A program made the position numbers and the translations under genes. DNA of 64,000 nucleotides from Promethearchaeota archaeon (GTDB lineage: Archaea; Asgardarchaeota; Lokiarchaeia; Sigyniarchaeales; SOKP01): NCBI GenBank assembly GCA_019058365.1, contig JAHPZE010000022.1, positions 8,750 to 72,749 of the forward strand, in the 5' to 3' direction. The notes under the pieces were generated by a model that had not been told where the DNA came from, made no database searches, and saw only the letters and a list, made by a program, of their open reading frames with translations. How positions within the stretch are numbered: the stretch's first letter is position 1; the number at the start of each line of letters is the position of its first letter. Of this stretch, positions 3 through 48,595 are shown one piece after another.

Positions 3-1760
3 TCATTTAAATCCACAAATCAGTTTGCTGGTAACTTTGATTTTGCCTCATTACCACAAGATACCTACACTATCATTTTTGAGTTTTATGACATCTCTGG
101 AGTTACTTCTACATTTGAATTAAATGAGAGTATTTTTATTGATTTTGAAGGGCCTTATATCTACAATCAATTTCCAGGATCTTCTACTTCCATAAATCCT
201 GATTCTGATTCCATCTCATTCATTATAAATGATATGTCCCCTATTGTAGATTATTACTTTAATAATTCCATTAATGGATTTTGGCAAGTAATCGGAGATA
301 CTTACACCTTTTATTTCAATGATACTTCAATATCAGAGGGACTAAATTCAATTCTCTTTAATTGTGAAGATTCTCTTGGATATACATCTACAAGTTATTT
401 TACTTTACTTATTGATAGAACCGCTCCTGACATCACCTTACTCTCAAAGAACTTTGATGAAATCATTACTAAATTATGTTCCTTTGATGTTCTCATTGAT
501 GATAACTCCAATTATGACATATCCTTGAAGGTTGTAGATTCCAATACTAGTGTTGTGTTTAATAATTTAGAATTCATTACGATAGAGAATCCTTCAGATA
601 CATGGCAAATTCTTTTTGATACAGGACAACTCCCAGATGGTTATTATGACATTTACATATGTGTTACCGATTCTGTAGGGAATTATGCTGAATTACTTAT
701 TGATCCCTATTTTGATAACACTCCACCCATAATTGATACACTCATAGAACAAATCTCTGTGGATGATCAAAATATCTATAATAATACTATTACTGATTCT
801 CTCTATTTCAATGACGAAGAATATCTCTATTTATCCGCTTCTGATATTACTTCAGATGGTTTTGATTGGGGTAGCATTAGCCCGCTATTAGGAGACCAAA
901 GAGGTGTTCAAAATGTTACAATGTATTATACTATCCCATTAGAATGGTATCCCCTCTCAATCTCAGGGAGTTTGGATTATGAGACACTAATTTATGAAAT
1001 TACGGGTTATGGAGATCCATTGAAGGGCGATCTGACCAAAATCAAGTCCATTCAGAACTTGAAAATAGGAGGATATACTGTTGATAAATTCAATATTATT
1101 TTGGATGGTACTTCTTTATTGCTCTCTATTGATCCTCAATATCGATACTTATTATCCTCAGCTTTTACAGACCAGATTTACGCTCAGTTCTTTGAAGCGG
1201 TTGCTGATCCAATTAACTTATCATATAATAGTAATACTCAAAATTGGGAATTAATATCTTTAGAAAGAAATTACTTTAACATTTCAGATTATTTGTCTCT
1301 TACTGAGGGAAACCAATTTCTTCTTTGGTTCGAATTAAAAGATGGGTTAGAAAACGAGTTAATTTCTCGTAAATATAATGGCTTTTATGATAATTATATA
1401 GGACAAGATCCTCAAGGAGCAGAATCATTTTCATGGTATTTGGGGGCTAATTCGAGTGGAGCAGGAATTATTATTTTTGGCTCGGATAATTATCCTGATT
1501 CCACGATTCAATTCAATATCTCTTCCATAGAGCTAACTGCTTTAGGAGAACAAGATATCCATCGCATAATGATTTATGGTTCAGTTGATTCACAAAATTG
1601 GATCTATATTGGAAGAGCGTATTATTCTGGTGAGGAAAATTTATGGAATTACTTCTGGGACGGGGATCGATTGGATCCAGTACCACCTCAAAATTATAAC
1701 CTTAAAGGTCTTTTATTTGATATAGCGGGAAATTATCTTACCCAAACTCATTCAATTAAG
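3..1760 (+). other. Tandem Ig-like (Big-type) domains within the giant protein
   Basis: Recurrent Ig-like signatures: IDRTAPDI, DTGQLPDGYYDIYICVTDSVGN, FDNTPPII, NYNLKGLLFDIAGN. Confidence 0.65.
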
Positions 1761-4700
1761 ATTTATGATTATACCCAGATTAATTTGATTACAGATTTAG
1801 TGTTTGGGTCGGTATTTGAATTCAATTATACCGCCTATTCAAATATTCAAAATATCGGAGGTATGATTGAAAATTATTTTGGCTCCAATAATATATGGGA
1901 TGTAATTGCTCAGTTTTATTCACCATCGGAACACACATGGATCCCACTTTTTACAAATCCAACCACAATTCATACCAACGGTTCATATGAAATAACATGG
2001 GACATTTCCCAAGATCACGGTTTTCTAGATAATATGTACAACTTTTCTTATGGTTATTTGCCATTACAAGTCGCTTCTGCTACATCTTCTGATTTGTGGG
2101 GATCATGGGGCACTTTTGGAGATACAATCTGGAAGCCCATAATTATTTCAGATGCAAATGGTAATATCAATATTACTATATACCTATTTAATAATGAGAC
2201 AGGATGGACCGTTGATAGCTCTTTAAGTTCTGAAATAACGATTCCTAACCTTAGCAATCAGGTATTTAAATTATTTGATATCAATAAAGATAACTCTTAT
2301 GAAATTCTTAGAGTCTCTCCTGCTCAAATTGACGTGTTGTTCCTCAATCAGACCACTTCTCAATGGGAAGTACAATTAGATGTTACACACCTTTCAGGCT
2401 ATGAATACCAAGCATTTGATATCTCATACGATAGAAGTTCCTCAGATACGTTTTTATTCGTTACTCAAAAAGAGACCAGTTCAAATCATTTATCCCTCTG
2501 GAAATATCAATTTACTAATCAGTATAGCCTTACCCTCATAAAATCTGTGGAATGCCCCGAAAATTTCGAACCTTATGCTATAAAATACAGTAATTATTTC
2601 TCTGGTTCTGACCGAAAAGCTCTAATTGTAGGGGGCTTGATTACAGACTCATACTATTCACAACTCATCGAATTTGATTCGAATCTGAACGTGAAAAATA
2701 TCATTATTGATGCCATTCTGGGAAAGATATCTCTCATTGAATATGATGATATCGGAGGGCTTGATACGATTGTACTAGGAGTGAAGAGAGTGCTCATAGG
2801 GAAAATGGATGCGGTTATCACTCTACATAGGACATCCGGAACAGAAGAGTGGGTTGAATTTGAATTATCTAATTTCGATGAAGTTAGGTTTGAAATTTTT
2901 GATCTTTTAACAATTTCTGAAGATTGTATGAAAAAATTAATTATCTCATCTAATACAGGGCTTTTTGAGACGAAAATTACCTCATTTAAAGATGAATTAT
3001 CAATAACCAGTCCTATATGTTTTTATTCTGAAACATTTACTATAGGAGAGTTAGCCCCCAGTTATTATCCTGAAATTATACCAGAAAAGACTCCTTTAAG
3101 TGCCGTCAATAAAATTACCTATAAACTCTCAAGCAGTAGTGAATGGAAGGTATTAAGTCTTAATAAATATCTAGCTTCTCCATATAAGGTAAAGATGGAT
3201 TTAACTTCTATATGGACTAATTTAGAATATGTGAAAATCGCATACTCGTTCAAATCATTTGTCGCAACGGTTCGAACTTCCGTTGATCCTTCATTTAACA
3301 ATAAAACAGGAGCCTCAGATACGCAATACATATCAGCTTCGGGCACCTTTTTCGATAACCTCCCCTTAAACTTCCAATGGTTAAACCCGGCAACAAGATA
3401 TATCGACCCTTATGCCAACTGGATTACTTTACCAAGCTCACTTTCCTATCAGTATCAACCGGTAATTTCTGGATTAGGAAATACCGTATTTTATCCCGAA
3501 GTGTATTATGGAGCGGATAATGGATATCTCCTTGCTCCCGAATTAGAGAATTATTTAATAGATTATGGAGATTCGTATGATTCAGGACAGCTATCGCAAT
3601 ATCTAAGCGGACAAGACGATTATTATACTAATATGTTTGACGGTAATTTCGAAGGGAATTATATAGATTATGTAGCTATGTCCAATCCTTACATTTCAGA
3701 CAATTACAACTTTGCTGATATGTATTATCCTGAAATTCAAGGCTCCGAAGGGGTTTATAATTCTTATGGTGATGGTCAATACGTCCTTGTGCGTAATAAC
3801 CTTATAGACCTTGAACCATATAACTCTAGTGTCAGTATCATATATGATTCTGGAACTCTTCCTGTGGAACTCACAGCTCATTATTTACGAGAGTTAAAAG
3901 ATGATGAGCCAGACTCTGATTATACTTATGGAACAGAAGGTGTTGAAGATGAAGAAAATTCTCATACAGACAATATGAGCTATTATGAGATGCAAACGCT
4001 AGGAGAGTATTTCCATCAACTTGAAGAATATAGAGAGCTTTTGTATGTAAATCTAGAAACTGATATTGAATATGATGGAGGGGATTATTATATTTCTTGT
4101 CATATTGAAACTACTGACGGTGCAATAGGGAGGTTATATATAAATGATCAAGTTGTTGCTTCTGGGACAATTATTGATATTTATCAAAAATTTTATGAGG
4201 GAATAAACAAAATTAATTTTGGTATTAATGAGCCAAACCTTCCAGGACCGGAATGTTACATTGCTAAATTATATTATTTCCAAGTGGCAGAAATTGATTC
4301 TAATAATCCTTCCATACAAGGCGCTCCAATAGAAGAAATAGAGGAAGTCTTGCTTGACTGGGAGCAATATATTAGCACAGCTAAGGAAGAGGATGGAGAA
4401 TTTGGATTCGAATTTACATACCAATTACCCGTGGTAGGCAAAAATACCCTCGATTCAATTCAATTAGCGTATGATGCCTCAATATCATCTACTGGCTTTT
4501 CTACTGAATATCCTCTCTCCATTCAATTCTGGAACTTTAAATTGAACAGATGGGAGAGTGTTCCGATGGCTCCTCTTGACGGAAATGACGAGCTAACTAA
4601 TCTTGATTATGACTTCTGGAGATATGGCTCTGAGACCTCTGGATATACTGATCGGTTCCGGCCAACGTGGAGTACGCTAGATTTAAATTCTACTAACACA

Positions 4701-7700
4701 ATTTCATATGGTGATACCTTTCCTAATACTCAGAGTGATAAACTAGTAATTGACGATACTATAAAAGATGGCGCAAGTTTTCTTTATAACAGTGATACTG
4801 GTCGTACTCATAATAGTGAATACTCTGACGATTTTAAATTTTTGACCTTTGATCCTGATTTCAATACCAATAAATTTCAGTTTGAGAATCTAATATTTGA
4901 TGTAAACCATTTTTGTACATATACGGAATCATCATTTCCGGGATATCATTCAGATCAAGCTTTTACACCTGTTGATTTTTATGATTTTGTCAATGATTTG
5001 AGCGAAATAAAAATTCGTATCCTTACAGAAAGAGAGCAATCTCAAGAAGCGAAAGCGTACCTGTGTATAGGAAATTTCAATACCTATGTAAATACGACAA
5101 CTAATTATCTTAATTATGACGAGTTTGAGGCAACAGTGAACGGCGTAAGTGATAAGCTTGATTTTACAGAGGATGGACTCGAATTATACGGCAATAGTGG
5201 AATTAGCATGAAGGAACCAGAACAAGTAATGAAATTTCGAGATTATTTTGCGAGGTCTAAATGGGAACTTTCGGGAACAGATGAGTATACCTTCGCATTT
5301 TCAGAGGATCTTGAGGGGTCTGCGGTTGCTCGTTCTTTGTACCCTAGTAGCAACTTTCCAAACTCAGATTTAACAACATATAATATACAAGACTCAGTAG
5401 TAGATTGGGGTGCTTTTTATATTGCACAAATAGGATCATATAAATCAGGCTCAATGATGGATACCCATACTGATAATGGTAATTCAATAAAATTTGATAC
5501 ATCAACAACAGGTGAAGCAAAAGTACGTTTCTACCAATATTTCGGGGGCTTTGAACCGAGCGGAAAGATGTTTGATGTGTATTTTGATATTCATACGACT
5601 GGGTTCAGTTCGATAGAATTATATACTGATAATCAAATAATTGCCTCAGACCTTTGGTGTTCTTCCCTTTCCGGTTCTGTGCGTATCGAGAATCCTGGGG
5701 GTACCAATATTTATGTAGAGACCAATTCATGGTATCCTCAAACATTGGAAATTGATTGGCTTGAAGTTTGGAATGTTGGGGAGCAATATGAATCATTTAT
5801 AGAACTCAATGAATTAGAGACATATTTCGGCAATAATGAATCAGACACTCATGAACTTCAGATTACACGTGATGATGTTATTTATGGAGATCTAACTTAT
5901 CTTTATATATACTCTACAAGCAGTTTTAGTAGTGAAGAATTAACATGGAATAACAGACCGAATCAAAATGATCTTGTTTCTCAACAAAAAGTAGATTCTT
6001 ACACACCTTTTACATTTAGCCTTGATTTAGGATCTACAATTGATTCCAGTCAATGGTTTAAAATAGATACGTCTGCCGGAGGATTGGATTATTGGGATCC
6101 TTTAGTATTATACGAAGTTTCGAAGAAAGGTCAACAAGGCGGGCTTTTATATATGCAAACCAACGAGACAGAAGATCTTATGCTCAAAAGCTCTGTATAT
6201 GCCCAGAATACAACGATCTTGCCAAATGATCAGCTTATTATTGACTACAAAACCACGACCTCTCATGAAATAACTTTAACATTATATAGTGATGGGGAAA
6301 TTACTAAAACATTTACCGTAATTGATTCGGGAAATCAAGATTTTTCTAACCAAATTATAACATTAACAACAGAGGAAGAAGTACAGTTTGATCAATTATC
6401 ATTTTCAGGTACGCTGGATGGAGGTCAATATTTCTCCGTTAATGATATTTCTGTTCATGGGGGACCTGCAATTGTGGATACTAAACTTTCATCCTATAAC
6501 TTTAATATTGATGCTCACAAACCTTATCTCCAACCAAGTACTGCGCAAGCTCTTACTAGCCCTATTTTTGCCTATGCTACCGATGAAGATTATTATACAA
6601 TTTTCTCAGGGAGAGAAAATAATATACCAAAAATTGAAATAGAATTTGAATTTACTTTTCCCCTATCAGATTTGGAAAATATGGATGATATGGAAATTAA
6701 GTTAGTGGCTATAGGAGAAGACATTTCTTTAGCTGATGGCACGTTTGAGCTGAAGAATTTTTCAAATGATGGAACTATTCCACTCAGTTTTGTTCAAGAC
6801 GGTGATGAATATACATTTTCTATTTCAGAAGATATATGGGAATTTTTGGTAAATGAAAATAATAATGGTGAATTAGAGTACACCATCGCATTTCGAATTT
6901 TATTGAGTAATATTAATGATTTTGTTCTTCGTATTGATAGTGTTAATGTAAACACATATCAAGAGTGGTCGATAGAGCATGATATCTATCGTGCTGCGTT
7001 TACATTTGAAGTTATAGGAGATCCAACAACAGGGAATATTACATGCGCTGTAAATGATGAGATTTCTTTTATTATAAATGCAACCGATCCCAATCTAGAT
7101 AAAGGTCCTAATAATGAAAATTTTGTATCGTTTTATTATGATTATTCTGGTGAGCAATGGTATGGCTTCTTAAATGATGACACTACCAATCGAATAAACG
7201 TGACTACCACGGAAGTTTCTTCGCAATTGAAGATTGGCACCAATTTTACCAATACAGATGAAGGTATCATCCTTAAACTGATTGAATCACAATATTATAA
7301 ACGAGTTCGTGATGGTGTTGATTTTGAGAAGTATAAAGCACTAATTACATCATATGCATTAGAATATGCCCACGTGGACGAGTACAGCACAGATTTCTTG
7401 GATTCATTTCTTACTCCAGAGAACGTATTTAGGCAAGTCTCGGCTGATATTGATGTTATTTATTCATTCCACGACGAGATGGTGCCTGATAATATTTTTA
7501 GCGTAAGTTTAAATCCAACTCTCACTTCGGATTATAGCGATAATTTAAACACATTTATCTATAATGAGACAGGAATTATAGCCGATTTTATTTCTAATTA
7601 TAATGATAGTTATACTATTTCTTCCATTTATGGGGATAGTCAACTTATATCTGGATCTCTTGAGAATCTTAATGATGAAAATGCAAATTATGCAAATTTT

Positions 7701-10700
7701 AGAACAACGTGGACATCCGCGCGATATGATTATAGTGAATTTATTTTCCCTCTTGGCGGATCGCTCGACTATTCGAGTAATCCATCAGGCTGGGATAAAG
7801 ATGATGATGGTTCTAAAAAAGTTTATAGTGCTAGCAATGAAGGGCATGACGATTTATTGATCCAAAATCCTTATTACATTTTCGATAACCCCAGTGGAGA
7901 TGCTGAAGTTGAAATTAAATTAAAATGGACATATTCAGAACTGGTTATTTCTGGTAGCTGTAAATTATACATTATGGATTGGATCGGAACCGGCTCACCT
8001 GAGGATCCTGAACCCTTATATGAACAACTAGGAGATGCCTTTACGTATGGTCAGTGGCATTCGCAGACACTTCAGATTTCTTCTGAGCATACGTATTATC
8101 CTGGAGTAGGGAATCAAATACAGCTTATGATTGAAACGAATACAGGAGACCCCATAGATAAAGAGCCAGATGTTACTGTAGAAATTGAATATTTATATGT
8201 GGATTTTAAAGACAATTATGATACCTCGTTTGTAGGTTTTAACTTTTATGATAGTATTTTAAATGGGCAAAATACATTCATTTTAGAGTTTAACGGAAAG
8301 ACGGATTCTTCGAGTTTTACTTCTGAACTTTTAGTTGATGATGTATCTGTTCTTTCCTTCAGTAATACATTCTCTTCCCTTGATAAAATATGTTATAATG
8401 TTGATTCAATAAAGGTGTGGATTGCTGATGATGGAGATTTTTATCCTGAAGGCAGGCAATTAATATTGGATTATTTAGTGTTAAAATGGCTCGACCAAGA
8501 TGTGGATTATCATATCAAAAACGATAAGCAGATTGTCATTAATCAAACATTATCAAAAAATAATTATCGCCAAGATTCTACAGGATTTTACGATGATCCT
8601 TTCTTTTCCAAGAATACGCTTCATTACACTCTTAAGAATTCCCTTCAGACACCCATTTCTAACCGTTCTGATGTTCAATTCTCCGTAGATCTCGCCCTCA
8701 CCGATATAGATTTTGATTTTGAGGTGTATCCCGAAGTTGATCCTCAGAGTTTTGTTCTGGAAGACACTAATATTGAGGGAAAGAATTACAATTCAACACT
8801 GCTGCAAAACTATACGATATTCGCATCCAGCAGATTTAAAGATAGTGCTATAAAAAATATCCAGATTCCCTTAGTTTCTTTCTTTGACTTGGATTTTGAA
8901 GATATGAACTTTGATGATTTCGAGCAAATAGAATTAGAACTTGCATTAGATATGAACCTTTTGCTCAAAAATAGAAAAACTGATTCTGATTGGTCTTTAC
9001 GATTGAGATTAATATACTATAATTATACTTCTTTACAATGGGAAGATTTTAACGGTATGTTGAGAGCAGAGAATAAGGGGGTAGAGAACACGGTATGGAA
9101 CCCTGATTTACAAGATAATCATATTGTCTATTTGCAAAATCTAGCTGAGGATTATTTTATTCCAATATCAGATACGAATAATATTCATATTAAAAATCCG
9201 ATTACCATCAAAAGTATTAGTAACCATACCATTTACGATGGTATAATGAAATTTGCTTTAATTTCATACATCTTACCTTCAAATTATTCTATTGAACCTG
9301 ATGCTCCAGAAAATTATTTTACCTATGAACGAGAAAATCCACAAATCCCGATTGAAATTTCTCAAGACGTTACAGTGCTAGAGTCTATTATAATAGGTGA
9401 ATCGAGAGAAATTATGTTCCCTGAATCTTCCATAGTAGCAAATCTCCCATTAGATGCCAATTTTAGAGCTAATTTGACTCAAATTGAAGACCTTGGAGAG
9501 ATCATTGCTGTTCGAGGGATTTATGTCGATCCCTATGGTACTAAATACAAATATCCGATTGATTATTATTGGACTACGACATCTAATGAACTTGCGTTTA
9601 ATTCCCCCCAGAAATATACCTTTACCAGCGTTCAGATTGAATATATCCCCCAAATTGCCTTATCTTATAATGAATATGATGGATATTGGTACTTACCCGA
9701 ATTTTATTTTGCTCATGGAGATAATTTTACTCAGCCATTTTTTGTAAGTGATCTATACGTGGATGGCAGTCCCTATGGAACATTCATACATCCTGATGTA
9801 GATGTCGGATATACGTTAGATACAAATGAATACGGAACATATGTTAACTTTAATGAGACTATTACGCCCCCTTCTATTGTTTATGGATCAATTCATTTTG
9901 CTAAAATAAATGATACATATTTATATACTTTTGATTTAGGAGATGAACTTTTATATAAATACGATATATTGAATGATGGAACTGAATATGTTGGTGGAAC
10001 ACTTCATTTAGATCTCAATGTTGGATTTAAAGATGTTATTTATTCAGAATTAACCCAAGTGTTATGTGATAGTTATACCCTAGATATCGAGTTATTTAGA
10101 ATGTATACGGATAATGACGATGAGATTACCTTACATCGGATAGGGAAAACAACAATCCCGCTCGATACCACTCTTTTAGGATATCATGAATACACTTTTG
10201 ATATATCATTAAGCGATTTCTTCAATTATCCTGAAGATCAAGAAGAATTTATAAGAGCTATTACCCGAGGGACCTCAAATGACCTTTATGTAGTGATAAA
10301 TAGTTCAATCGTGAACTGTTATGTTGATGGGAACCTATTTAAAGGAATGTACGCCCATCAGCTTACTTCAGCAAATATGGAAATTCAAACTGCACAATCT
10401 CAATTAGTATTTAACGATGATGATGTTGATATACCTTACATTCCAATCTCCCAAAATGATGTTGTATTAACAAAAGTAGCTCCTGGAAGCTATTTATTCG
10501 ACTCAAGTGCTTTATCATATGATTTTAATTTTATCTTAGATGAACTTCACACCGATACTACTATATTGTGTAATAATACTGATTATACATTCGATTCTGA
10601 GTCAAAAACGATTACTTTACTCGGAATTTATCGTGATTATGCAGGATATTTGCTTGCAGATATTACATATAAAGCATTTGAATGGCAAAGTGGAAGTGTA

Positions 10701-13700
10701 TCCACTTTAGAACCAATAACGGTCTCGTTTTCCCATGACTATGTGAATAGTATCACGAAATATTTAGAATTATCGCTTCAATTTGATCAAGATGGCATTC
10801 CAGGAGTAGAACTTGAAAGAATTGATGAGAATTCGGGAAGAGTGGTATTGGCTTCTGAGAAAAAAGCCCCATCTCTTCTTAATATCTATATGTATAATTT
10901 TATTACTAATACGTGGGAATGTATTGATTTTGTTACCTACGACGATTACAGTGGAACTAATACCTTTTCTTATGTAGTTGATCGAAATTTCATTACATTT
11001 GAAAATTTTTTCAATTCAACTGTAACAGACGAGTTTGAAGCCAAATTTATGTTTTCTATAGATGAGGATATGGGAGAGAGCTTTACCTCTCATGCAACCT
11101 TTAATATAATTTCTATTGAAGCTAATCTCTATTATGATACTCCTGATTCTGAACACTCCATTAACCCTGCTGTTGAATTTGATGTAGATTTGACTGACTA
11201 TCTTACAAATAATGAGATTTATGTAGAAGAAATATCTTTGGATCTGAGTTATGAGAGCGATATTGAGTTTGATTGCGCCTTTTTATTTGCCCAATACCTT
11301 CTTTTGGAAGAAAACTATAATCTATACATTATGAATAAGTATCTTGAATTTGAGGAAATTGAGTTTGAAGACGACTCTATCACCCTTTCTCGAGAAGACA
11401 TTTATCAATATATATTCTTTGATATGGAAAATGAAAGATATTACCTTACACTAATGTTAGAATATGATTGGAATTGCATTCTTGAGATGAATTTAGGGAG
11501 TGATTCCAAGCTTGAAGTTATTTCCACCTTAAATTTACTCAAATATGACCTTTCTGTGTCATACACGCTATATGAAACTACGCGTATTTCTGCCTGTGAA
11601 ATTAATGTTCCATATCAACTTATGGCAATTTATGCTCCCAATTATATACAAGATGAAGATTCCATTTATGTATCACCTGACAATGATGAGATAATTGATA
11701 TTGGAATATTCGGAGGATTTTTACGAAATACCAATACAAAACAAAGGCTTATGCTCCGACAACAATTATTTTATAATTTTACAGAAAGCCAAACAGGATG
11801 GTCTAATATCCTTTTAGATCAAGAGTATTCCGATGTAATATTACGATTTACTGTACCATTTGGCTATTTACAGTCTCCTAATACCTATTTAACTAATACC
11901 ACTACATTTATATTTAAAACTGATCCGGATGTTGTTGCGGTGGAAATGTATTATAATAATGGTGAGCAATATATTAAAATTGGGGATATGGAAACAGATT
12001 CACTTGACTCTACTCTATTTTCTTATATATGGACCGATATTATTGGCGATACAGGAGCTTCAACATTAGATCCTATTTATATGATGTTTAATATAACTGA
12101 CTTATTTGGACAACATGCCAAGTATTATTATAGCAGAGTTGCCGAATTTGATATTCCCGCTCCTACGATTAGTATAGGCGATGGGACAAAAGATTATCAG
12201 AATCAATATATCGCCGATCCAGACACTCCTATTACTTTTAATCATAACGAGGAATATTTTCAATCCTATAACCCTCTCTATGTTTATCCGACTCAGCCTG
12301 GTGATTTTTATAATATTTATGGCTCAAGTAATTGGAATGGAAATCTCTACACTTACGATGACGATTCATTTACAACTTTTACTTCTGATGCTGTAACATT
12401 TGATTATGATTATGAAAGTGGAGATTCATACTATTATGAGAAATGGAATGAAGGCTTCTCCGCTGAAGACCATATGACTCATGAATATTATCCCGACGAT
12501 CATAGTTCTTCTTATTCGGTTGAAGGAAATTTATATATGGAGAATAATTTTCCTTACGAATATTACCAAGAAGACTACTCAGGGTGGAATTTAAATTATA
12601 ATTCAACTGATACAACTTCTTCTTTCAGTAATGGTGATCTAAGTTCTGAAATTAATAGTGATATCACTTCTAATACTCCTATTCAAGCACAGATTCCTAC
12701 TGGAGATTTCGATATGATTAATGGTACATCCAATTGGGCGGGAGATCTTGCTGTTGCAAATGGTGCTTCATATACTACATTTACTTCTGCATCTAATGTC
12801 ACCGAAGGGTGTTATCCCGCGACATATTCTTTTGAAGGCGAAATAGATGGAACAACTGGGACAGACATAGATTTCATAGACTATGTATCAACTTACGGTA
12901 CTTGTAGGATCGACGCTTCTTATGGTGGTCATAATAAGGTACTCTACGTAAAAGATTCATCATTTAGCGCAGGATTGCAATTTCACCATTATTTAGATAC
13001 TTCGAGAACAACTGGAACTGTGGAATATTGGTTCGCAATGACAGATTTATATTATGGTAACAATGATTATGTAACTTTCTATAGTTTGGATAATAATGGT
13101 CATGCTGGGTTTACTATAGCTGCAACAGATGGATTGTTTATTGATGCTCAGTCGAATACTGCTTCTATGGTATATAATACATGGTATCATATTCGAATAG
13201 ATTTTAATTGTACCGCGGGAACATACGGACAGTATGATTGGTACTTAAACGGAATTTTACAATATTCTAACGTTGAGATGGGTGATAGCTCTACAAATGT
13301 TGAGAAATTGGTTATTCGTGGGACTTCAGCGCCTCAATCTGAATCTTACTTTGATGCATTTGGATTTTCATGGGATGCTAACTATATTCGCGGTGATAAT
13401 TGCTATTGTTATAATTATGAAGACGTTACATCTGATTTTGAAAGCGAAGACACATATACAGTAGGTACTGATATCGGTTTTATAGATTCTAAGACTATTG
13501 GTATGCTTGCGGGAATAAAACCAAGTTTCGATGAACATAAAAAAGTCCTCCATCTTATAACTGCTCTCAATTTACATCAAGCAAATAATTATTTCTCTTC
13601 TGCCCAAACCTCAGGTACGGTCGAATTCTATATTAAGTTGGCAGGAACAGGCGTTAATAAATATATCGAAATATATCATGATATTAACAATAGACTTACG

Positions 13701-28700: not shown

Positions 28701-31700
28701 ATGCCCATATCTACAGGTGAAATAAACCCTCAATATGACGCAAAAGCAATTGTAACACCACCTGACAGCCTCAGAATCACTGGACGCATGGGCGATTCCA
28801 ATTTTACGTTCTTCGGTATTGAAGAAAAAGAACTAAACTGGTGGGATAAGTTTTGGATGAATGTATTTGAGGCTTTAGCTGGAGGTGGCGACGCAATGGC
28901 ACCAGGTTCTGGTATTAATTTCCCTGAATTTACTGATGCGGAGGAGGAAAACATTAGAGATATGCTAAGAGCTGCTTCACATGCCTATACAAATCTGGAC
29001 TACTTACTTATAACAAGCGAATTGCCATCATATAATATCATTGAATATTATGAGTTCGATCATGGAACGGAAGATTATCGCACTATTGCATATGATAATT
29101 ATAAAAGTAATACGTTAGGATTTTTAGAGCAAACCATGATTCCCGCTTCAAATGGAAAGTATAATGCAATAAGACCGATGTGTATTAATGGTCGCCCCGC
29201 ATACATGTATATTAACAGCAATGATGAGTTCAATCAGCGTATCCAACCACTTTCACCGTTATATCAACCCGTTGTCATTAGTAATGAGCGATATGGAGTG
29301 CTTTTTCCAGACGATACCATCCCAGACTCTACGATTTCAGTTGATATCCAAAGCGGATTGTTAAACGATTCCTATACTTCAGGTATTGACTCTAATAATC
29401 TTACAATTTATGAATATAAGCGAGGGTATAAAGCAAAAATTCCACTCTATAGCGATGAATTTAACTATCCAATTAGTTTGATCACGGTTGAAGTTATTAC
29501 TTCAGGTGTAAGTTCAGGTCTATTATCCAGTACTTATTTTGCCACCTATGTTTCGGAAATCGAGCTTACGTCCAGTCAATATACTCTCGAAGGAGGTAAT
29601 TTATACTTTTGCGAAACTTTTGATGAGATTATTCTTTCAGCTTTTAATTTTAAAGTATTGCAAGACGAGTTTCTAGAATTAACTCAGAATTGGGAGGAAG
29701 GGACCCTCTTTTATAAAGTTCATATCCACATTCCGCAAGTGATTGCAGATACATCTACGACCGCAGGAGTTATCGATACGATATCCAGTGATGCTGGCAG
29801 AAGTGCGTTAGCTCAGACCACTCAGTATTTAATTAGTGATTTCTTTAACGTATTCACCTTAGCAAAATCATTTGCCGAAGGTGAAGCACAAAAAGATTAT
29901 ACCGTACAAGTTACAGCAATTTCCACCCTGATATCTTCTTTAGCCCTTCTGCCCGTTGTTTTCGCCTCCGCTGGAGTATCGGGTTTTATTAAAGGTGCGG
30001 TTGGCAGGACTATAGGAACAACTGTAGCAAAATATGTTGCGTCGTTGCCAGTTCAGGTACTACAAGAAGTATATGAAGAGCTTTATATTGACTCATTTAT
30101 AGAAGAAACATTACAGCATTTGGGCGACTCTACCGGTATCTGGGGCGTTATTGTCACTTCATTACGGGAAGCTATACTCGGGCCAGCAGCCGAATTCCTA
30201 GGAAGCCTCAGAGGATCTTCAAACGTAGATGTAAATACCCAGATGACCGCTCAAGAAGTTCAATTACAACAAACAAGTAATATCTTACAATCATTTTTAT
30301 GGACTGGTCATCATGTTATGCAAGAGGCAACATTAGATAATGCCATCTCTTCGGACGTATCAACTGAAGCTCAATTATTAAGTAATAATATAAATAAGAT
30401 TCAAGCCCAACTTGCAGAACTGGGACTTACTCGACAGAAGAATAAAATAAAGGCAAAATCTATATTCGGCACGGAATTCATAATTCAAGGAATCTTCTCC
30501 CTTCCTGGACTCTTCTTTGGCGGGTTCAATTTAGGCGCGATGGGAACGCTTCTTGACCTGTCAATCGATTATATGTTTGATGTCCAATTATCTCGCCACA
30601 TGATCGACAATAAAATCCAAGCGGTAACTCAAACGAAGCACAGATTAGACCTTGAAGCAAAGTATTTAGGATTAGTACGCGATGCACAAACCGTTTCTAA
30701 TATCCCTCAAGTCAAGTTCGTACTTGCCATGGCACAAGGGATTGCCACCATCAACCCAAGCCAATACAGCGCCTCCGAATTCCAAACTCAAGTACAACTG
30801 CAAATAAATCAACTCGATGCATTCGGCACAATTATAAGGTCTGTGAAAGAGAAACAGCAAAAAATCAAAGAAAGGCAGAATCAATTGGAGGTTCTAGGTA
30901 GTTCTAAAGAAAATGTCGAGAGTATAGAGCAGAAATTTCAGAATAATCCTAATCCGATACAGCTACATCTCAATCTCGAATTTCTGCCTGGAATGATTGC
31001 GTTTGAGCCTCACAGGCAAGCTCTTCGCGTCTGGAGTGAGGAAAATCCAGAAGGCATCAACCTTAACCCCCCTTCCGATTTAACACTTCCCGAATTTGAG
31101 CTCTACATAAAGAATAAATTAGGATTAGATCGAAGCCAAGAAGTTTTTCTTGCGTTAACCCTAGTTGATGAGAGTACCAATGAGATAATCCAAATCAGAG
31201 TTGATGAGAAGATTGGTGATTTAGAGATTGACGATCAAACCACCATTGGTGAGATTTCCAATGCTATGAATGGATATAATTTATATATAATGCCTCTGAC
31301 TGCGGGCGCTTGGGGTGGTATTAATTATGATCCAAATTATATTGTACCTATTTATGATTGGTTGTTTGAACCCCCTTCTGTAAAGATTATAAGAGAAAAG
31401 ATGGGAACACTATTTGATTCTGAAATTATATCCAAATATTTTAGTGATCCTGTATTACAAGAGCAACTTATAAACATATATTACCAAGTTATCACCCCTA
31501 CAGCTAGAGCTTATTTGGATAAGATTTCTACAGGAACAGTAGGATCCGTTTTTGGAGCCAATTCTATATTTAGTGGGAAAAATTCGTTTGAATGGATTTC
31601 CAGAACTGCAGAATTTTATTATTTGTTACAGTTAGAAAATTCTCCTCAATATAAAAATATGAATCTAAAACTAAAGAATGCAAAAATTAAAGAATTCAAA

Positions 31701-34700
31701 GCATATATCAGTGAAATAATCGAATTTGTATTGAAGCCTCGATTCGAGAACACATTTGATGATGCTAATAAAGGCTTAGATTTTATTAAATCTTTATTAG
31801 AAGAGAGTGCCCGATATGCAATTATGGAAATGATTTTGTTACAAATTACAGATGGAGGTAAAACTAAATTAGAAGGATCTGAGTTAGCTTCCAAATTAGA
31901 AAACTTTTTAGCTAGTTATGACAAGAATAAGTTCATTAAAGAGTTTAATAAAAAAGGTACTAAATTTGTGCAACTCCGTTTCATGGAGAGCATGCTTACA
32001 GGTGAGTGGGATACACAGATGCGCTTTGATTACACTCCATATGAAATTGGCTGGTACCGTGAGACTTTTTCATTTATGTTCCTTATTAGTGATTCTCTTA
32101 TTAAATTGTTTTTTGATGATGAGTTTGACTTAATGGCGGGGTATGATAGTAGTGCAGATAAGCATACAAGAATTCAATTTTATCAGACAATTTCGTATAA
32201 TCCAAAATATGTTCACAAAGATTTTAAAGATTTTATTGATACCGATCTTGAAGCCGTTTATAAAAAGTTAAATAATGGGTTAGCTGAAACTTTTGGAAAT
32301 TTAAAGAAGCAGAATTTCAGAATCACTGACCTCTTCCAGATGTATATTAAGGGACTAGCATATATCAATTATGCCATCAAGAATTCTAGGACCTCTGATA
32401 ACGAACTAATGCTTAATAATATCGCAATGGATACTTTAAGCACTATTTTTGGTGCGTTCTTTAAAAAAATATCTGATAAAGGTACAGCAGCTGAGATTGA
32501 GAAACAAATAGAAGTATTAGTAGTTGCTAGTAAGGTTGGAGAGATTGCTCCTATTGGTAAGATTATTAATACTATAGTAGAGACGCATAAATTAAGTCAG
32601 CTCCATCAAGCGGGAAAAGAAGATGGTTTTTGGGTAGAGGGTGAAGGAACAGGTAAAGGTCCTGACCAAATGGAATTCTATATTACTATAGCAGATAAAA
32701 TAAATGAGAAGTTAAAATCAGAGTCTATTGATAGATCCGATATTAATAAAGTTGTAAAGAAAATTCAATCTTATTTAAAAGATGTGGATTTCAAAGATGA
32801 AATTAAAGATATAGCTAAAGATATTTTAGGAGCAGCCTATAAAGATATGGCGGTCAGTGAGATTTATAATATTGTTAATAAAGAGTTCATAGGGGGTAAT
32901 CTGAAGAGAATACTTAAACAAGATGATCAGGGTAACTATCAACTTGAGTGGGATATAACAATAAATGTATATAAACGTACTGATATTGATATTGACGAGG
33001 CAAAATTAGCGAATTCAGGACTTTTCTTTGTTATAAAAGATAGAAGTGGAAAATTAGCTAAGATGACTTATTCCCAAGTTAAGCAAATGTATCCTAAATT
33101 TGATTTTAAACAAGCATGGATAGCCGTAAAGGATAGGAATAGTGGCAATGGATTAATGTCAGCAACAGAGAAGATCAATGATTTACCAGATTCATTGGAG
33201 AATGATATTTCAGATAAGTTTGGGGATATTGAAGGAGTCTATATAACAGACCATAGTGGAAAACTCTTACTCGGAAGGATATTTCTTGACAAAGATTTCT
33301 ATGAATTTGCTGTTATGGAGGATGCAGAGATTTCTCAGCTCTTAAGAGAAAGTATAGAGCATATTAAGAATTATGATTTCCCCGGCGCTGATAGGATCAA
33401 TGAATTTTTCCATCTTACATATTTACGTTCGATTTCTTGGAAGACGGGAGGGAGAATTAGCTCAATTATTCAAGATGTTGATTCAGCAATCATCCCTACA
33501 GGACCTCATAAATCAATTTTTTCCATAGAGAGAGCAGCAGTTATTCTAGGGAAAGAACATGTGATACTCAATCCAGACCGAAATAAAATTACTGAATTGA
33601 AAGGGGAATTATCTGCATTATTGAATGTTATTAATCAACTAGGTGGACTGTATACTTCCCACGAATTATATAAAGAGAGTGAAATAACTCCTAAGATATT
33701 TCCAACTAAAGATTTTGCCAATTTACATTCAAAAGAGAAGATATTTGGAATTAATGAATTTAGAACAATGTTAGAAAAAGTGGTGCCAAAGCAAGGAGGG
33801 TGGCTGCACAATAAAGATCCTTCCAACCCGTTACTTTCAGATTATTGGTATGAACATCTTGCACGATTTTCTGAATATTCTTATAATAATAAGCTAACAA
33901 AGGAACAATTTTATAAGAATTGGCTTTTAATAATTCAGAATGATTTAGAGAGAGGCTCGCCTAGTGGTTATTTCAAGGGTTTTGAAGATTTAAAAGGGAA
34001 GACCTTTACAAGTAATTTTGAGGATAAAGTTAATGATGATTTAATCCATAAAATCGATGAAGCGGTAAGTAATGCCATCGGGTATCCTTACTACATCAGC
34101 CTCCTTTCGGGAATCCTTACCATATATCATCCATTAGGATCATTAGGCTCGGGACTAATAGAGATAGGATTTCTATTACATACAGACGAAAAACAAGCTG
34201 AACTTTTGAATGATTGGAATCTAAGGGCGCTTCAAAGTGGAAGCTATAAATCGGAGGGTAGAGCTTATTTGAAGGGTTATACAGAAAACAAAGGTATCTC
34301 ATACGATAAATCTGCTTTAGTATTTGCTTCACTATTTCTATACGGATTTTATCATCATATTTCCGATAGAAAATTATCATTTGAGCTTAGCCGCGATAAG
34401 AGCTCGATTTTATCACATTATTATAGTAGATTTTTGCCGCAGAAAATTACGGATTATAAGACTGCGCTTTTTAATTTTATTTCCACAGAATTCAAATCTT
34501 ATATGGATGCTGAATACATTGATAAGCGTAATACCATTGAGAGGGGTATAATTAAAGAGTTCTTTCTTAAGGCGCTAGATAAAGCTTTAGAGATCAAGTT
34601 TAAAAAAGAACCCTGTTCTATCTATAAGCAAGAGCGTATAACAAAATTGTATAGGACTTACTTAATCAATTTTATTGATGAACCATTTCATTCACTGAAG

Positions 34701-35657
34701 CACTCGGGTAAAAAAGATTCCCTTCATGATTTTGTAAGATATCTACGGGATATAGCCCATTCAGGTAATGATGGGCTCATTACTCTGGATCCTGGGATTG
34801 CTCGACATGGAATTGCTGATCCTATCGACATTTTCATTGAATATGATAAGCTTTCAAAGATTTTGCCGGAGATAAGTCAAACCTTTAATTTTTATTACGA
34901 CTCACATAAAGAATTGGGGCATAGCACTAAGAGTCCGAATTATAGGATAGTATATGATCTTTTCTCGGGAGAGTTAAATAAGAAGATTGAAAACACATAT
35001 AATAAGCTCCTAGAAATGTTTTATAAAGTCGACGAGAATGGCAAGCTAACTACTGAGTTAAAAGATGAGCTAAATGTTAAAGAGTTTACAGGAACAGAAT
35101 GGACTTTAAACTTTTACACTGAAACAGATAAAGGTGTTAAGAAGTCGCCGACGCATCTAGGATTATCTCCTACCGGATATTCATTTAATATAAACGATCC
35201 AAAACAAGTTCATAAAGCAATTGTCACCTTACTGTTTTGTACCTTATTGGAAGATCGATGTTTTGGTGTAATCTTTGTTGCCGGAGATGATAAGAATCAA
35301 TTCTTCTATTATGATAAGTACGGGCTTTATTCGGAAGAATATTTTATGGAATCAGAACATGCGAAGAGTGTGAGATTTACAGGTTCCCACTTCTGGAATC
35401 GATATGCACCAAGTTCTTCGTTCACTAAGGCGGAGTACCAGAAGTACATCGACGAGTTAAAGGATAATCCAGATGAATATCTTAGCGTCAAGGATATTAG
35501 GAATTTTCTTGAAATGCAGCCATCTCGTCAGAACGGTGATGCTGACATTAGATATTATATTATGAATAAATTTATTAAATTCTTTTCAGAATTTTACAAT
35601 GCTGATTTCCATAAGATTGGAAACGTATATGATATAATCGAAGATCTTTTTATATAA
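3..35657 (+). CDS. Giant (>=11,884 aa, 5'-truncated) multidomain cell-surface/membrane protein: acidic ectodomain, hydrophobic segments, Ubl-like domain and Lys-rich C-terminal region
   Basis: The ORF track starts at ATG 234, but the frame is stop-free back to base 3 ([33 protein letters not shown]...), so the true start lies upstream of the window. D/E/Y/N/T-rich with many N-x-S/T sequons up to ~29.5 kb. Hydrophobic segments at ~28.4-30.6 kb. Stop TAA at 35655-35657. Confidence 0.93.
   Translation, partial: [11884 protein letters not shown]
12807..13400 (+). repeat. LamG/concanavalin-A-like protein repeat, copy 1
   Basis: YPATYSF...GHNKVL...TTGTVEYWF...[10 protein letters not shown]...[18 protein letters not shown]; aligns by eye with copies 2 and 3. 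Confidence 0.7.
13419..13988 (+). repeat. LamG/concanavalin-A-like protein repeat, copy 2
   Basis: EHKKVL...[10 protein letters not shown]...[11 protein letters not shown]...[18 protein letters not shown]. Confidence 0.7.
16857..17495 (+). repeat. LamG/concanavalin-A-like protein repeat, copy 3
   Basis: YLATYSF...DGHKKVL...STGTIEFWV...[10 protein letters not shown]...[18 protein letters not shown]. Confidence 0.7.
30954..31319 (+). other. Putative ubiquitin/SAMP-like beta-grasp domain inside the giant protein
   Basis: [35 protein letters not shown]...[12 protein letters not shown]...[14 protein letters not shown] parallels ubiquitin ([24 protein letters not shown]...[10 protein letters not shown]...LHLVLRLRGG) and the SAMP/MoaD-type tail (hydrophobic-P-x-x-x-GG). 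Eye alignment only. Confidence 0.5.
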
Positions 35658-35674
35658 TTCTTTCTTTTTTATTC
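35658..35674. terminator. Short T-rich spacer between convergent genes; probable archaeal oligo-T terminator for the giant gene
   Basis: ttctttcttttttattc lies between TAA (35657) and the LRR stop (35675). Confidence 0.4.
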
Positions 35675-37297
35675 TTATCCATATTTACTTGTGTGAACCG
35701 TCCATTTGCCAAACTTTGTTTTTAGCCACTCAATTTCGGATTCACTAATTTCTGTTCCTTCTATATAAAGGCTTTGTAGAGATTTAAGGTTAATAGTTGT
35801 TGGCGGTAAACTTCGTATAGGATTATCACTAATGGAAATTATTTCCAGCTTATCTAATTCTCCAATACAAGGAGGTAATTCTGAAATATTATTATTTCGA
35901 ATTCTTAAATCTTTCAATGTTTTTAGTTTACATATTGATTCAGGCAATCTTTCTATTTGATTTTCTCCACATTCGAGATTTACTAGTGAAGTCAATTTAC
36001 CAATAGAAGAAGGAAGTGTTGATATTTTATTACTGTCTACATCAAGCCATGTAAGAGTTTTAAGATCTCCTATTGATATAGGTATTTCTTCTAGAAGGTT
36101 TTTACTTAGAGTGAGAGTTTGTATCGATTTAAGGTTCCCAATAGAATCCGGAAGTTGCTTTATCTGATTATTATAAAGGTCTGCATATCTGAGAGAATTT
36201 AAATTCCCAAAAGATTTTGGAAGAGTCATTAATTTATTATCGCGTAAATCTAGTCTCTTTAAAGAAAGAAGATTTCCGAATGATTCTGGTAAAGTTTCAA
36301 GTTCATTATCAAATAAATTTAAGTTTTCTAATCTTTTCAAATTCCCAAATGATTCAGGTAATTTTATTAGTTTATTGTTGCTAAGATTTAACTTTTTTAG
36401 AGAAGTCAATTTTCCAAACGATTCAGGAAGCATCCTTAATTGATTCGAAGAAATTCTTAATTCTTCTAATGATTTAAGATTTCCAAATGATTCAGGTAAT
36501 TTTTCCAAATTTACAAATATCCTAAGTTTTTTTACAGATTTCAATTCCCCAATCCAATCGGGAAGACTTTTCAATTGGTCGCTTGAAATACGTAATATAA
36601 CTAAGTTTTTCAAGTTTTTTATTATTTCAGGTAATTCTTCTATATAACACCTTGCAAGATTAAGTTCCTTCACTATTCCTTCTTCCAATAGAAAGCTCTG
36701 ATCATAGCGAGAGTCTTTCGAATCTAAATAGAATTCTTTTTCTGTTAATCTTTCTAGTTCCTTTATAGCGTTCTCTTCTTCTACTAATTTGAACAGGCTA
36801 TATTTTTCTTCTCCTGTTATCAACTTCATATATTTTTCTTGGAGCAAGAATTTTTGGACGTTCTTCGTCCCGTTAAAGAATCGAGAAATTATTTCTTCTT
36901 TAAATCTTTGTTTTGCTTTTAAATCTCCGACTTCAGTCAGTCTTTTTAATAAGGGGAATGAAAGGTTGCTGTGAAGGAGTCGGGTATCATAATTATGTTC
37001 TGCCCATGCTTGAATATTTGAGCAATGAACCAAGAATCTCACATGAGGTGGAATATCTATTACTTCCACTTCAAAATTATCCTCATACATATGGTAAGGA
37101 GCATTAGCCACTTCATCTACAGACAATTCTGTTAATTCATCAATAGAATCAATTTGTTGAAGCTCTTTTAATCTGTCAGCTTGTCTATTTAGTAAAATGA
37201 TTGAGCAATGTTCGAACAATTCTCCATTTACATAAAGATTTGTCTTCTCATCTTCAAGTTTCAAAGTAATAAATTCATTTATTTTATATTCAACCAT
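35675..37297 (-). CDS. Leucine-rich repeat protein with Lokiarchaeia-type N-terminal domain
   Basis: About 13 LRRs of 23 aa (LPESFGNLKSLEELRISSNQL). N-terminal domain EYKINEFITLKLE...HCSNIQAWAEHNYDTRLLHSNLSFPLLKRL...KEEIISRF resembles a family I recall from Lokiarchaeal LRR proteins. Confidence 0.92.
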   Translation of the reverse strand: MVEYKINEFITLKLEDEKTNLYVNGELFEHCSIILLNRQADRLKELQQIDSIDELTELSVDEVANAPYHMYEDNFEVEVIDIPPHVRFLVHCSNIQAWAEHNYDTRLLHSNLSFPLLKRLTEVGDLKAKQRFKEEIISRFFNGTKNVQKFLLQEKYMKLITGEEKYSLFKLVEEENAIKELERLTEKEFYLDSKDSRYDQSFLLEEGIVKELNLARCYIEELPEIIKNLKNLVILRISSDQLKSLPDWIGELKSVKKLRIFVNLEKLPESFGNLKSLEELRISSNQLRMLPESFGKLTSLKKLNLSNNKLIKLPESFGNLKRLENLNLFDNELETLPESFGNLLSLKRLDLRDNKLMTLPKSFGNLNSLRYADLYNNQIKQLPDSIGNLKSIQTLTLSKNLLEEIPISIGDLKTLTWLDVDSNKISTLPSSIGKLTSLVNLECGENQIERLPESICKLKTLKDLRIRNNNISELPPCIGELDKLEIISISDNPIRSLPPTTINLKSLQSLYIEGTEISESEIEWLKTKFGKWTVHTSKYG

Positions 37298-37825: not shown

Positions 37826-39283
37826 TTATAAATCTTTAGTTACTCGCTTTTTATCATACATTTCAAGTAGAGCTGGCATGAAAATTCTACTTAACTTTTT
37901 ATAAACTTTTAAATTTTCTTTCTGTGGAACCTTAGTATCAAAAAATCTAACCATATTTTCAATAGCTTTTTCAAAATTAGAAAATCTTTTGCATCCATAA
38001 AATCCTAAGATTGCTGCTCCTAAAGCGGCTCCATCTTTTTCTTCTGGAATTAAAATTGTTTTATTTGTAATATCAGCAAAAATTTGAGCCCAAAAAGAAC
38101 TGTTCATCCCGCCTCCATCAACTCTAATTTCACCTAATTTATAGCGAGCCATTCCTTCTAAGATATTTATGTACATTTGAGCACTTAAAGCAGCACATTC
38201 CATTATTGCTCGAATCATATGACCTCGAGTATGATTCCAACTTAATCCATGAATTGTTCCTTTTCTAAACATCTGTAATGGAAGAAATAGAACTCCTTCA
38301 CTCCCGGGTGTAATAAGTTGCGCTTCAGTAGTTAGAACTTCATAAACGTTAAGATTTTTTTCTTCACACTCTTTAATTTGCATTTGTGAAAAATTATCTT
38401 TAAACCATTTCAAAACACTACCTGTTCCTGGTACCGCACCCTCAATCATCCATTTTCCTTTAATAACATGCGGTAGCGAAAAAATAGGAAAATCTCCAGC
38501 TGGGGGGATTGGCTCGTCTACAATATAATCAACAAAGGTACCTGTACCTGTTGTTATTTTTGCCTGTCCCTTTTTTATCACACCTAAACCTAAAGCAGCA
38601 CACTGTTGATCCGCTCCGCCTTGAACAACTGGAATATTTTTTTTTAGTCCTAATGCTTCTGCCGCATCGGAAGTTAATTCACCAATAATATCACCTGGAG
38701 TATGTATTTCCGGCCAAAGATTCAATGGTATCTCTGCTTGTCTAGACAACTCTTCATCCCAATTTAGGGTTTTCATATTAAGTATTCCCCAAATTCCGTT
38801 TGTAGGATCTGTGACATGTCGATTGCATAATTTAAAATTTATATAAGAATCTGGTGTGATAATTTTATATGCTTTATTAAACAGTTCTGGTTTATTATTT
38901 TTAAGCCATAACAATTTAGCGATTAATCTCCTTAATCCACCTTCTTCTAACATTGCCCGACCACTACTAAGTTCTCTTTCATCTAACCAAGTTAACGCGG
39001 GGTGTAGAATATTACCATTTTGATCAATAATTGTTGTAGTAGATCGGAAGAATGAACTTGATATTCCAATTATATTATCAGGATTAATACGTTTTATAGC
39101 ATTATTACATGTATTTTTAATTGCATTCCACCACATAATAGGATCATGTTCTGAGATACCTGCTGGTTGTTTAACAAGAGGATACTCTTCATAGGCTTTA
39201 GCAATTTCTTTACCGTTTATGTCAAAAAATATTGTTCTTGCCCCTGTAGTTCCAACATCAAATACACACATCAAATCGCTCAT
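37826..39283 (-). CDS. FGGY-family carbohydrate kinase (xylulokinase/glycerol-kinase-like)
   Basis: DVGTTGAR, GGADQQCAALGLG, TTGTG, DGGG...WAQIFADI, GAALGAA motifs. Confidence 0.92.
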   Translation of the reverse strand: MSDLMCVFDVGTTGARTIFFDINGKEIAKAYEEYPLVKQPAGISEHDPIMWWNAIKNTCNNAIKRINPDNIIGISSSFFRSTTTIIDQNGNILHPALTWLDERELSSGRAMLEEGGLRRLIAKLLWLKNNKPELFNKAYKIITPDSYINFKLCNRHVTDPTNGIWGILNMKTLNWDEELSRQAEIPLNLWPEIHTPGDIIGELTSDAAEALGLKKNIPVVQGGADQQCAALGLGVIKKGQAKITTGTGTFVDYIVDEPIPPAGDFPIFSLPHVIKGKWMIEGAVPGTGSVLKWFKDNFSQMQIKECEEKNLNVYEVLTTEAQLITPGSEGVLFLPLQMFRKGTIHGLSWNHTRGHMIRAIMECAALSAQMYINILEGMARYKLGEIRVDGGGMNSSFWAQIFADITNKTILIPEEKDGAALGAAILGFYGCKRFSNFEKAIENMVRFFDTKVPQKENLKVYKKLSRIFMPALLEMYDKKRVTKDL

Positions 39284-39335
39284 ATAATCACATCTCTTTT
39301 TCTCATTTAATTAAATTTAAAATTTAAAAATTTAT

Positions 39336-44131: not shown

Positions 44132-44157
44132 ATTTTTTTTTAATATTAATCTTCTTG

Positions 44158-45270: not shown

Positions 45271-45384
45271 TTAAAATTAACACCTTATATTATATTATAT
45301 TAACAATATTATCCTAAATTCAATAATCTTAAAATACTTTTTAAAATATCTTTATCATGATAACACAGAATTTAAAACGGTAAA

Positions 45385-47241: not shown

Positions 47242-47244
47242 TTT

Positions 47245-48540: not shown

Positions 48541-48595
48541 ATAAAGCATTAGGTTATTATTCTATTAAAAATTTCTTACAAATTTAAAAAAATAT

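Follow-up and report, generated by a model that had tools for sequence, protein, structure and literature searches.

The 64,000-nt stretch of DNA analysed here (the window) lies on contig JAHPZE010000022.1 (G000:C47 in our set) of a Promethearchaeota archaeon, and its left part is taken up by most of a single gene that encodes a protein of 14,544 residues, the giant. The giant belongs to a Lokiarchaeia-restricted family of predicted membrane-anchored surface proteins. Its C-terminal end is a cassette that is polymorphic among relatives, is bounded by sharp breakpoints, recurs as spare copies and is linked to an adjacent partner gene; in addition, the region that follows its third hydrophobic segment (TM3, for transmembrane segment 3) is devoid of N-glycosylation sequons. 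From these sequence comparisons, we put at about 0.55 the probability that the cassette is an exported, polymorphic payload and that the giant is organized genetically like a polymorphic, toxin-like effector system.

The C-terminal cassette, its polymorphism and its partner gene

A preliminary description, made from the letters of the window, had claimed one open reading frame (ORF) of at least 11,884 aa. This frame is open without a stop across positions 3-35657 of the plus strand, and continues upstream on the contig, where it spans G000:C47 733-44406 (14,557 codons from stop to stop; 14,544 aa from the first ATG). The gene starts at G000:C47:772, i.e. 7,978 nt upstream of the window, and the 14,544-aa ORF is real. 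Residue numbers given below count from the start of the ORF in the window. The host is an Asgard archaeon, also as described, and is of the Loki type (Lokiarchaeia).

The family was surveyed in 135 genomes of the GTDB family using the C-terminal membrane module of the giant as query. The module is present in 44 of them, with many copies located in frames of 11,000-20,619 aa. When the C-terminal tail was used as query against 400 genomes of the phylum, matches were obtained in just 10, all from the same GTDB family. Two queries of the own genome with the last 2,445 aa did not reveal a paralogue; a shorter spare tail cassette, on contig C40, surfaced in another scan (see below). A search for homologous proteins with the tail, among proteins of 794-2,529 aa, gave no match, and the tail plus the adjoining ubiquitin-like (Ubl) region gave 2 matches only. 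The feature-based search of the ESM Atlas returned no usable match, and we did not find the family described in the literature.

For the comparison of tails, 28 further loci were used, each with its last 1,600-3,000 aa. Three families, with 12, 5 and 5 members, were obtained along with 10 singletons, and these families are mutually unrelated. Similarity between tails shows no correlation with similarity between membrane modules (rho -0.01). The tails are also mosaic: sub-module 1 of our tail is common to nine others, while sub-module 2 is shared more narrowly and is replaced by another type elsewhere (Table 2). The closest homologue (G224:C54) is 60% identical to our giant up to aa 10298 and 24% identical beyond it, such that a conserved scaffold is followed by sharply demarcated, unrelated C-terminal domains; the Ubl linker is swapped along with the tail.

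Spare cassettes place a second set of breakpoints. In G224:C21, a 1,582-aa frame that lacks a giant upstream matches ours at 73% identity over aa 10287-10439 and is unrelated exactly after AWGG. In G185:C64, an additional, partial cassette accompanies the giant's own tail; both share 83% identity across the coiled coil and linker, and diverge at most 5 residues from AGG/AGA into tails of different families. In our own genome, a spare tail of 726 codons (C40:30978-33155) shares 44% identity with the end of the tail of a G227 giant. Each of these three orphan cassettes has its own leucine-rich repeat (LRR) gene; at G000:C40:30978-34258 (locus L086), the tail is followed in the same direction by an LRR gene that belongs to the partner family. 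Since homology ends on both sides of the linker, namely at aa ~10298 and at the Gly motif, the junctions flank the linker domain. The preliminary description had suggested that an alignment of homologues might show a conserved membrane module followed by unrelated C-termini, and this is what we observe; the breakpoints fall on the Gly motif or beside it, and spare cassettes occur in addition.

In G185:C64, the frame that encodes coiled coil, Ubl segment and tail starts 200 nt before the frame of the giant ends, and in another phase (L059:8892-9099). This phase change points to a frameshift, an error in sequencing or decay into a pseudogene.

An LRR gene stands immediately downstream of the tail in 20 of 28 loci, in either convergent or co-directional orientation. 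Its product combines a family-specific N-domain of ~200 aa, which is conserved, with leucine-rich repeats. Our own genome encodes nine paralogues with this N-domain (two of which adjoin tails) among ~22 LRR genes in all. The LRR gene at our locus had been described as following the giant at 17 bp; the distance is correct, but the gene is on the minus strand and thus convergent. The LRR genes beside the 20 tails, being of one conserved family, are not the variable neighbours that had been named as a sign of a polymorphic system. The tails of family C have a small zinc-ribbon ORF in place of the LRR gene. The encoded proteins have 113-186 aa, a basic N-terminus that is conserved, and a zinc-ribbon-like motif of four Cys; their genes are found downstream of the giants in L040, L041, L045, L048 (two copies) and L068.

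Absence of sequons beyond TM3

The 1,445-aa tail of our giant does not contain a single N-glycosylation sequon, i.e. N-x(not P)-S/T, with 9.3 expected. Across 29-31 homologues, 1 sequon is observed in the post-TM3 region vs. 331 expected. The counts for its parts, for two control motifs and for an independent metagenome set are listed in Table 1; within the metagenome set, 34 of the 52 sequons come from two long fragments, where they fall in ectodomain parts further upstream. The desert begins at TM3, with the last sequon located before aa 9926 in all homologues but one. In the 450-aa domain that precedes TM3, the 32 sequons are mostly at conserved positions.

Table 1. Observed and expected numbers of sequons and control motifs
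Set and motif	Observed	Expected
31 tails (33,987 aa), N-x(not P)-S/T	0	264
31 tails, reverse motif	248	264
31 tails, non-acceptor N-P-S/T	20	8.2
TM3-to-block-3 loop, sequons	1	18.9
Putative coiled coil + linker, sequons	0	48.3
450-aa domain before TM3, sequons	32	93
110 independent metagenome cluster representatives (96,454 aa), sequons	52	785

Several control sets were counted in the same manner. The non-membrane ORFs of the genome have a sequon ratio of 0.90, and the N-terminal cytoplasmic heads of 8 giants contain 23 sequons vs. 22.1 expected. Among 133 other membrane proteins, the C-terminal tails show a ratio of 1.28 (1.04 for the basic subset, 66 proteins of this genome), and none of the 39 informative tails has zero sequons. 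Since these cytoplasmic controls are neutral, location in the cytoplasm does not account for the desert. The genome carries an STT3/AglB gene, and we infer that, at the outer membrane face, the post-TM3 region encounters the oligosaccharyltransferase and must not be modified by it.

Furthermore, a genome-wide sequon scan was carried out blind. Its top ORF other than the giant was C40:30978-33155 (0 sequons vs. 6.3 expected), which proved to be the spare tail sub-module mentioned above; apart from it, no comparable ORF was found in the genome. The sequon-free zone can thus be used as a sequence-only marker, which found a spare cassette of the own genome without prior knowledge.

Layout of the giant and its neighbourhood

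The acidic stalk, DxDxDG motifs, hydrophobic segments, Gln-rich part, AGAWGG end and Lys-rich tail of the preliminary description can each be located in the ORF (Table 2). Missing from it, being outside the window, is the N-terminus of the giant, which consists of a Lys/Arg-rich, cytoplasmic-looking head of ~200 aa followed by ~9-10 strongly hydrophobic helices. The base of the ectodomain (aa ~430-950, N-terminal) is conserved in homologues at 31-50% identity. No Pfam family is detected in any of the 11,884 aa of the window ORF.

The body is acidic (D+E 16%, K+R 5%) and contains five D.D.DG motifs vs. 0.5 expected, at nt 7794, 16710, 26844, 27141 and 28014. Sequons are near expectation when the entire ectodomain is considered (145 observed vs. 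128.5 expected). Hydrophobic block 1 is probably a helical hairpin around Ser-Asn-Pro. The 450-aa domain beyond it is probably extracellular and glycosylated, because its sequons are few and at conserved sites. From genus to genus, these sites (in our giant aa 9738, 9796-9799, 9817-9823 and 9856) keep their place in the alignment, and two more conserved sequon sites are found just before the hairpin, at aa 9135 and 9214. The conserved sites of the domain suggest specific, conserved N-glycans. Block 3 would either fold back as a re-entrant hairpin or cross the membrane as a fourth segment. Gln accounts for 11.6% of aa 10060-10310 vs. 3.2% overall, and the Gln-rich segment probably forms a coiled coil. 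The AGAWGG motif ends at aa 10439 (nt 31319). In the 1,445-aa tail that follows, K+R rises to 12.8%, and the G+C content of the tail (0.33) is the same as that of the bulk of the giant gene; the membrane/coiled-coil part alone is higher (0.37-0.39). The model of sub-module 1, built with AlphaFold2 (AF2) on a 31-sequence alignment, has a predicted local distance difference test score (pLDDT) of 79.6 and a predicted template modelling score (pTM) of 0.82.

Table 2. Features of the giant gene and its partner, in window coordinates
Feature	Position (nt)	Strand	Basis or remark
Giant gene, 3' 11,884 codons + stop	3..35657	+	ORF translation, contig extension
Extracellular body, acidic, Tyr/Asp/Ser-rich	3..28412	+	Composition
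Hydrophobic block 1, aa 9471-9513	28413..28541	+	Hydropathy; kept across family
~450-aa conserved domain between putative hairpin and TM3	28560..29897	+	Best-conserved part of family
TM3, aa 9970-9995; sequon-free zone starts	29910..29987	+	Hydropathy
Gly-rich hydrophobic block 3, aa 10147-10185, Lys/Arg cluster before	30441..30557	+	Below hydropathy threshold
Gln-rich segment	30570..30902	+	Composition; breakpoint vs. closest homologue at aa ~10298
Beta-grasp (Ubl-like) linker ending AGAWGG	30960..31319	+	Structure model; GG = nt 31314-31319
Tail sub-module 1, aa 10450-11190	31350..33572	+	Confident AF2 model
Tail sub-module 2, aa 11191-11884	33573..35654	+	In four other giants; another type instead in at least five
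Sequon desert, TM3 to C-terminus	29910..35654	+	Motif counts; no N-x(not P)-S/T
Convergent LRR partner gene, 540 aa	35675..37297	-	17 bp from giant; no signal peptide

At the 5' end of five of seven giants, an adjacent gene in either orientation encodes a secreted, sequon-rich protein of ~600 aa without a Pfam match (L080:7211-9013, L082:5095-6918, L083:4772-6625, L084:5199-6941 and L085:6179-7942). In our own genome, such a gene is found on a 10.8-kb contig (G000:C42:8350-9942, locus L087), and C42 may adjoin the start of C47. The sole other ORF of the genome above 3,000 aa (3,289 aa) is on G000:C43, together with LRR genes at C43:3012-3731 and 41278-41445.

On the other side of the partner gene, at a distance of 528 bp, the minus strand (window 37826-42089) encodes an FGGY sugar kinase, an FAD-linked oxidase and a CCG/4Fe-4S subunit (glycolate-oxidase-like), which look like ordinary metabolic genes. 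A cluster for the supply of UDP-GlcNAc (window 42713-48549; phosphoglucosamine mutase-like, SIS-domain, GlmS-like and GlmU-like genes) is located 5 kb beyond the giant, which may be a coincidence. Finally, a gene that combines Peptidase_M50 and CBS domains (site-2-protease-type) is found on the minus strand at window 54021-55136, 17 kb from the end of the giant.

A proposed polymorphic payload, its alternatives and known systems

In the reading that we prefer, a constant scaffold would consist of the cytoplasmic head, ~10 helices, an acidic ectodomain of ~11,500 aa, the hairpin and the glycosylated 450-aa domain, and would end in two further hydrophobic segments and the Gln-rich coiled coil. 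Onto this scaffold would be joined a recombining cassette, made of a small linker domain, which at our locus is a beta-grasp with GG at its end, and of a tail of 700-1,850 aa composed of exchangeable sub-modules. Every cassette would move with its adjacent partner gene, usually of the one LRR family, and spare pairs would be kept elsewhere in the genomes. The post-TM3 region would be exposed to the oligosaccharyltransferase at the outer face of the membrane and kept free of glycans for later passage through a narrow channel or another membrane, and on account of this passage it is taken as a delivered payload. The LRR protein would bind the tail as an antidote, holdase or adaptor, and the payload may act in killing, in kin marking or in signalling to a partner cell.

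A number of observations weigh against an exported payload of this kind. Neither the PDB nor the ESM Atlas yielded a credible structural relative for the model of sub-module 1, and searches of the giant, the tails and the C40 cassette with Pfam, NCBIfam and PADLOC did not reveal a toxin, nuclease, peptidase or other known domain. The sizes of the tails are far above those of classical toxin tips. The N-domain of the LRR proteins is constant across tail families and does not co-vary with tail type, while co-variation of the full-length LRR proteins with the tails is weak (rho 0.25, from pairs that are not independent). The LRR partner lacks a signal peptide, and its sequon content is ordinary. 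Block 1 and TM3 have hydropathies of 2.1-2.2 and could act as stop-transfer sequences, which would leave the tail in the cytoplasm of the producer. In addition, we found no precedent in the literature for sequon-free exported domains in archaea or for a link between sequon avoidance and exposure to the oligosaccharyltransferase. Other searches were negative as well: PDB searches with profiles A3 and A4 gave nothing below E 0.1, and Pfam at E up to 1 gave no match in the last 250 aa of ten other tails. Complex prediction for the C40 spare tail with its LRR protein returned a score of 0.00 and allows no verdict.

Some of these points would be expected if the giant were an adhesin or receptor whose tail stays in the cytoplasm of the producer for anchoring or signalling (Notch-like or cytoskeleton-linked), with the LRR protein as a cytoplasmic adaptor and the diversity arising from an arms race with viruses or partners. 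The strong hydrophobicity of block 1 and TM3, together with the Lys/Arg cluster before block 3, the missing signal peptide of the LRR partner, its constant N-domain, and the large, folded, multi-domain body of the tail (pTM 0.82) without a toxin domain all agree with such an arrangement. However, it leaves the near-complete loss of sequons behind TM3 (1 vs. 331 expected) unexplained, as the cytoplasmic heads of the same giants, the basic tails of 66 other membrane proteins and the non-membrane ORFs are all close to neutral. Furthermore, free-standing cassettes of tail and LRR gene without a membrane module are hard to fit with anchoring. The Notch-like receptor offered in the preliminary description thus fits poorly with a sequon-free tail, and we regard a cytoplasmic tail as possible but rather unlikely.

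The exported payload could also be part of a more ambitious scheme, a cell-to-cell delivery machine. On contact, the entire post-TM3 region, comprising hydrophobic segments, coiled coil, beta-grasp and a folded payload of ~1,450 aa, would cross the producer membrane, pass its oligosaccharyltransferase and insert into the neighbour, such that the payload reaches the cytoplasm of the latter; there, a ubiquitin-type protease may cut the Gly-ended beta-grasp, and LRR proteins would serve as intracellular receptors or antidotes. We consider this extended scheme distinctly doubtful.

We give still less credence to the proposal that the beta-grasp is a ubiquitin-like pro-domain and that JAMM or another deubiquitinase cuts after the di-glycine to free the payload, which is how the preliminary description had pictured release. 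The fold itself was correctly foreseen: the segment is modelled as a beta-grasp, and the top-50 matches of two independent searches are all ubiquitin-superfold domains. The homology of the spare cassettes stops at the Gly motif, and the genome contains six JAB-domain and three ubiquitin-family genes, which also agrees with release at this site. However, all nine are on contigs other than that of the giant, and the genes of the window do not include an E1, a JAMM or another deubiquitinase or protease linked to the giant locus. This type of Ubl domain is limited to 6 of the 135 genomes and, in the closest homologue, is swapped together with the tail, and the di-glycine is kept in 3 of the 6 copies, the remainder having AGA, SGV or nothing. 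The Ubl profile did not match the corresponding linkers in other giants (probabilities of 0.1% and 0.4%). The best structural matches are the built-in RA, FERM and USP7-type Ubl domains rather than ubiquitin or SAMP. It should also be noted that the deubiquitinases in the cytoplasm of the producer could not reach this region if it is outside the cell. Because of the restricted occurrence, the variable di-glycine, the negative profiles, the uncleaved nature of the matched Ubl domains and the location of the JAB and ubiquitin genes elsewhere, we read the Ubl segment as one interchangeable linker among several, and cleavage at the di-glycine as possible but unsupported. Compared with RA, FERM F1, USP7 Ubl and TBCE Ubl domains, the linker shows no sequence similarity and differs in ending with a Gly-rich tail at a recombination junction.

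One positive profile match of the linker was discarded as circular, one sequence having been present in both alignments.

Finally, a chimeric assembly of the ORF or its junction can be dismissed: the source is a 54-contig metagenome bin with 6.6% contamination, and nt 30840-31760 are not covered by any independent sample, but a 48.9-kb Logan contig from an independent assembler, at 77x and probably from the source sample of the bin, covers nt 29500-33500 including the junction without differences, and dozens of genomes hold colinear homologues of the same architecture.

Returning to the polymorphic payload, its closest counterparts are the polymorphic toxins of bacteria, such as CdiA-CT/CdiI, Rhs and MafB (Zhang et al. 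2012, PMC3482391). Common to both are a huge, conserved surface scaffold, a recombining C-terminal cassette with a sharp boundary, a dedicated gene directly downstream and spare cassette-partner pairs elsewhere. Unlike in the bacterial systems (PMC3482391), the giant has no FHA, RHS, VENN, PT-TG, HINT or known toxin domain, the tails are 700-1,850 aa long rather than 100-300 aa, the partner is a conserved and often convergent LRR family, and the scaffold uses ~10 N-terminal helices as an anchor and has a second membrane module. The host differs as well, being an archaeon with a single membrane and N-glycosylation. The hallmarks of CdiA and two-partner secretion (TPS domain, FHA repeats, VENN and CdiB) were not found, no Pfam family being detected in the 11,884 aa of the window ORF, and the archaeal host has no outer membrane. 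Taken together, the gene-level architecture appears to match that of polymorphic toxin systems, while the parts match none of them.

Among archaea, a hypervariable Ig-domain gene module of Thermococcales combines a gene for a large surface protein with variable downstream genes, and a role in conflict or self/non-self recognition has been proposed, according to the accessible portion of that report (PMC8416519). It resembles our locus in being archaeal and in pairing a large surface protein gene with downstream genes, but it involves another protein family in another taxon, and no sequence relation to our giant was seen. Many proteins above 3,000-10,000 aa are found in Asgard genomes (Wu et al. 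2022, PMC8813620; West-Roberts et al. 2023, 10.1101/2023.11.21.568195). In the accessible parts of these two sources, the giants are either the aloposon-linked Otus/Ephialtes or appear in length counts alone, and cassette exchange, an LRR partner and a sequon-free tail, as seen here, were not found described. The family is built from domains that match no described family.

No closer relatives of eukaryotes than the Asgard archaea are known, and these archaea form tight partnerships. How their cells make contact, recognise one another or attack is, to our knowledge, almost entirely undescribed. The giants form a large, lineage-specific family that appears to bear the genetic signature of a contact-dependent polymorphic system. 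Judging from the sequon desert, a stretch of more than 1,900 residues may travel through the membrane, past the glycosylating enzyme, and have to remain free of modification. The conserved LRR partner hints at an intracellular, LRR-based recognition pair in a lineage ancestral to eukaryotes. If the delivery machine outlined above were true, it would amount to a means, specific to Asgard archaea, of transferring large proteins from cell to cell.

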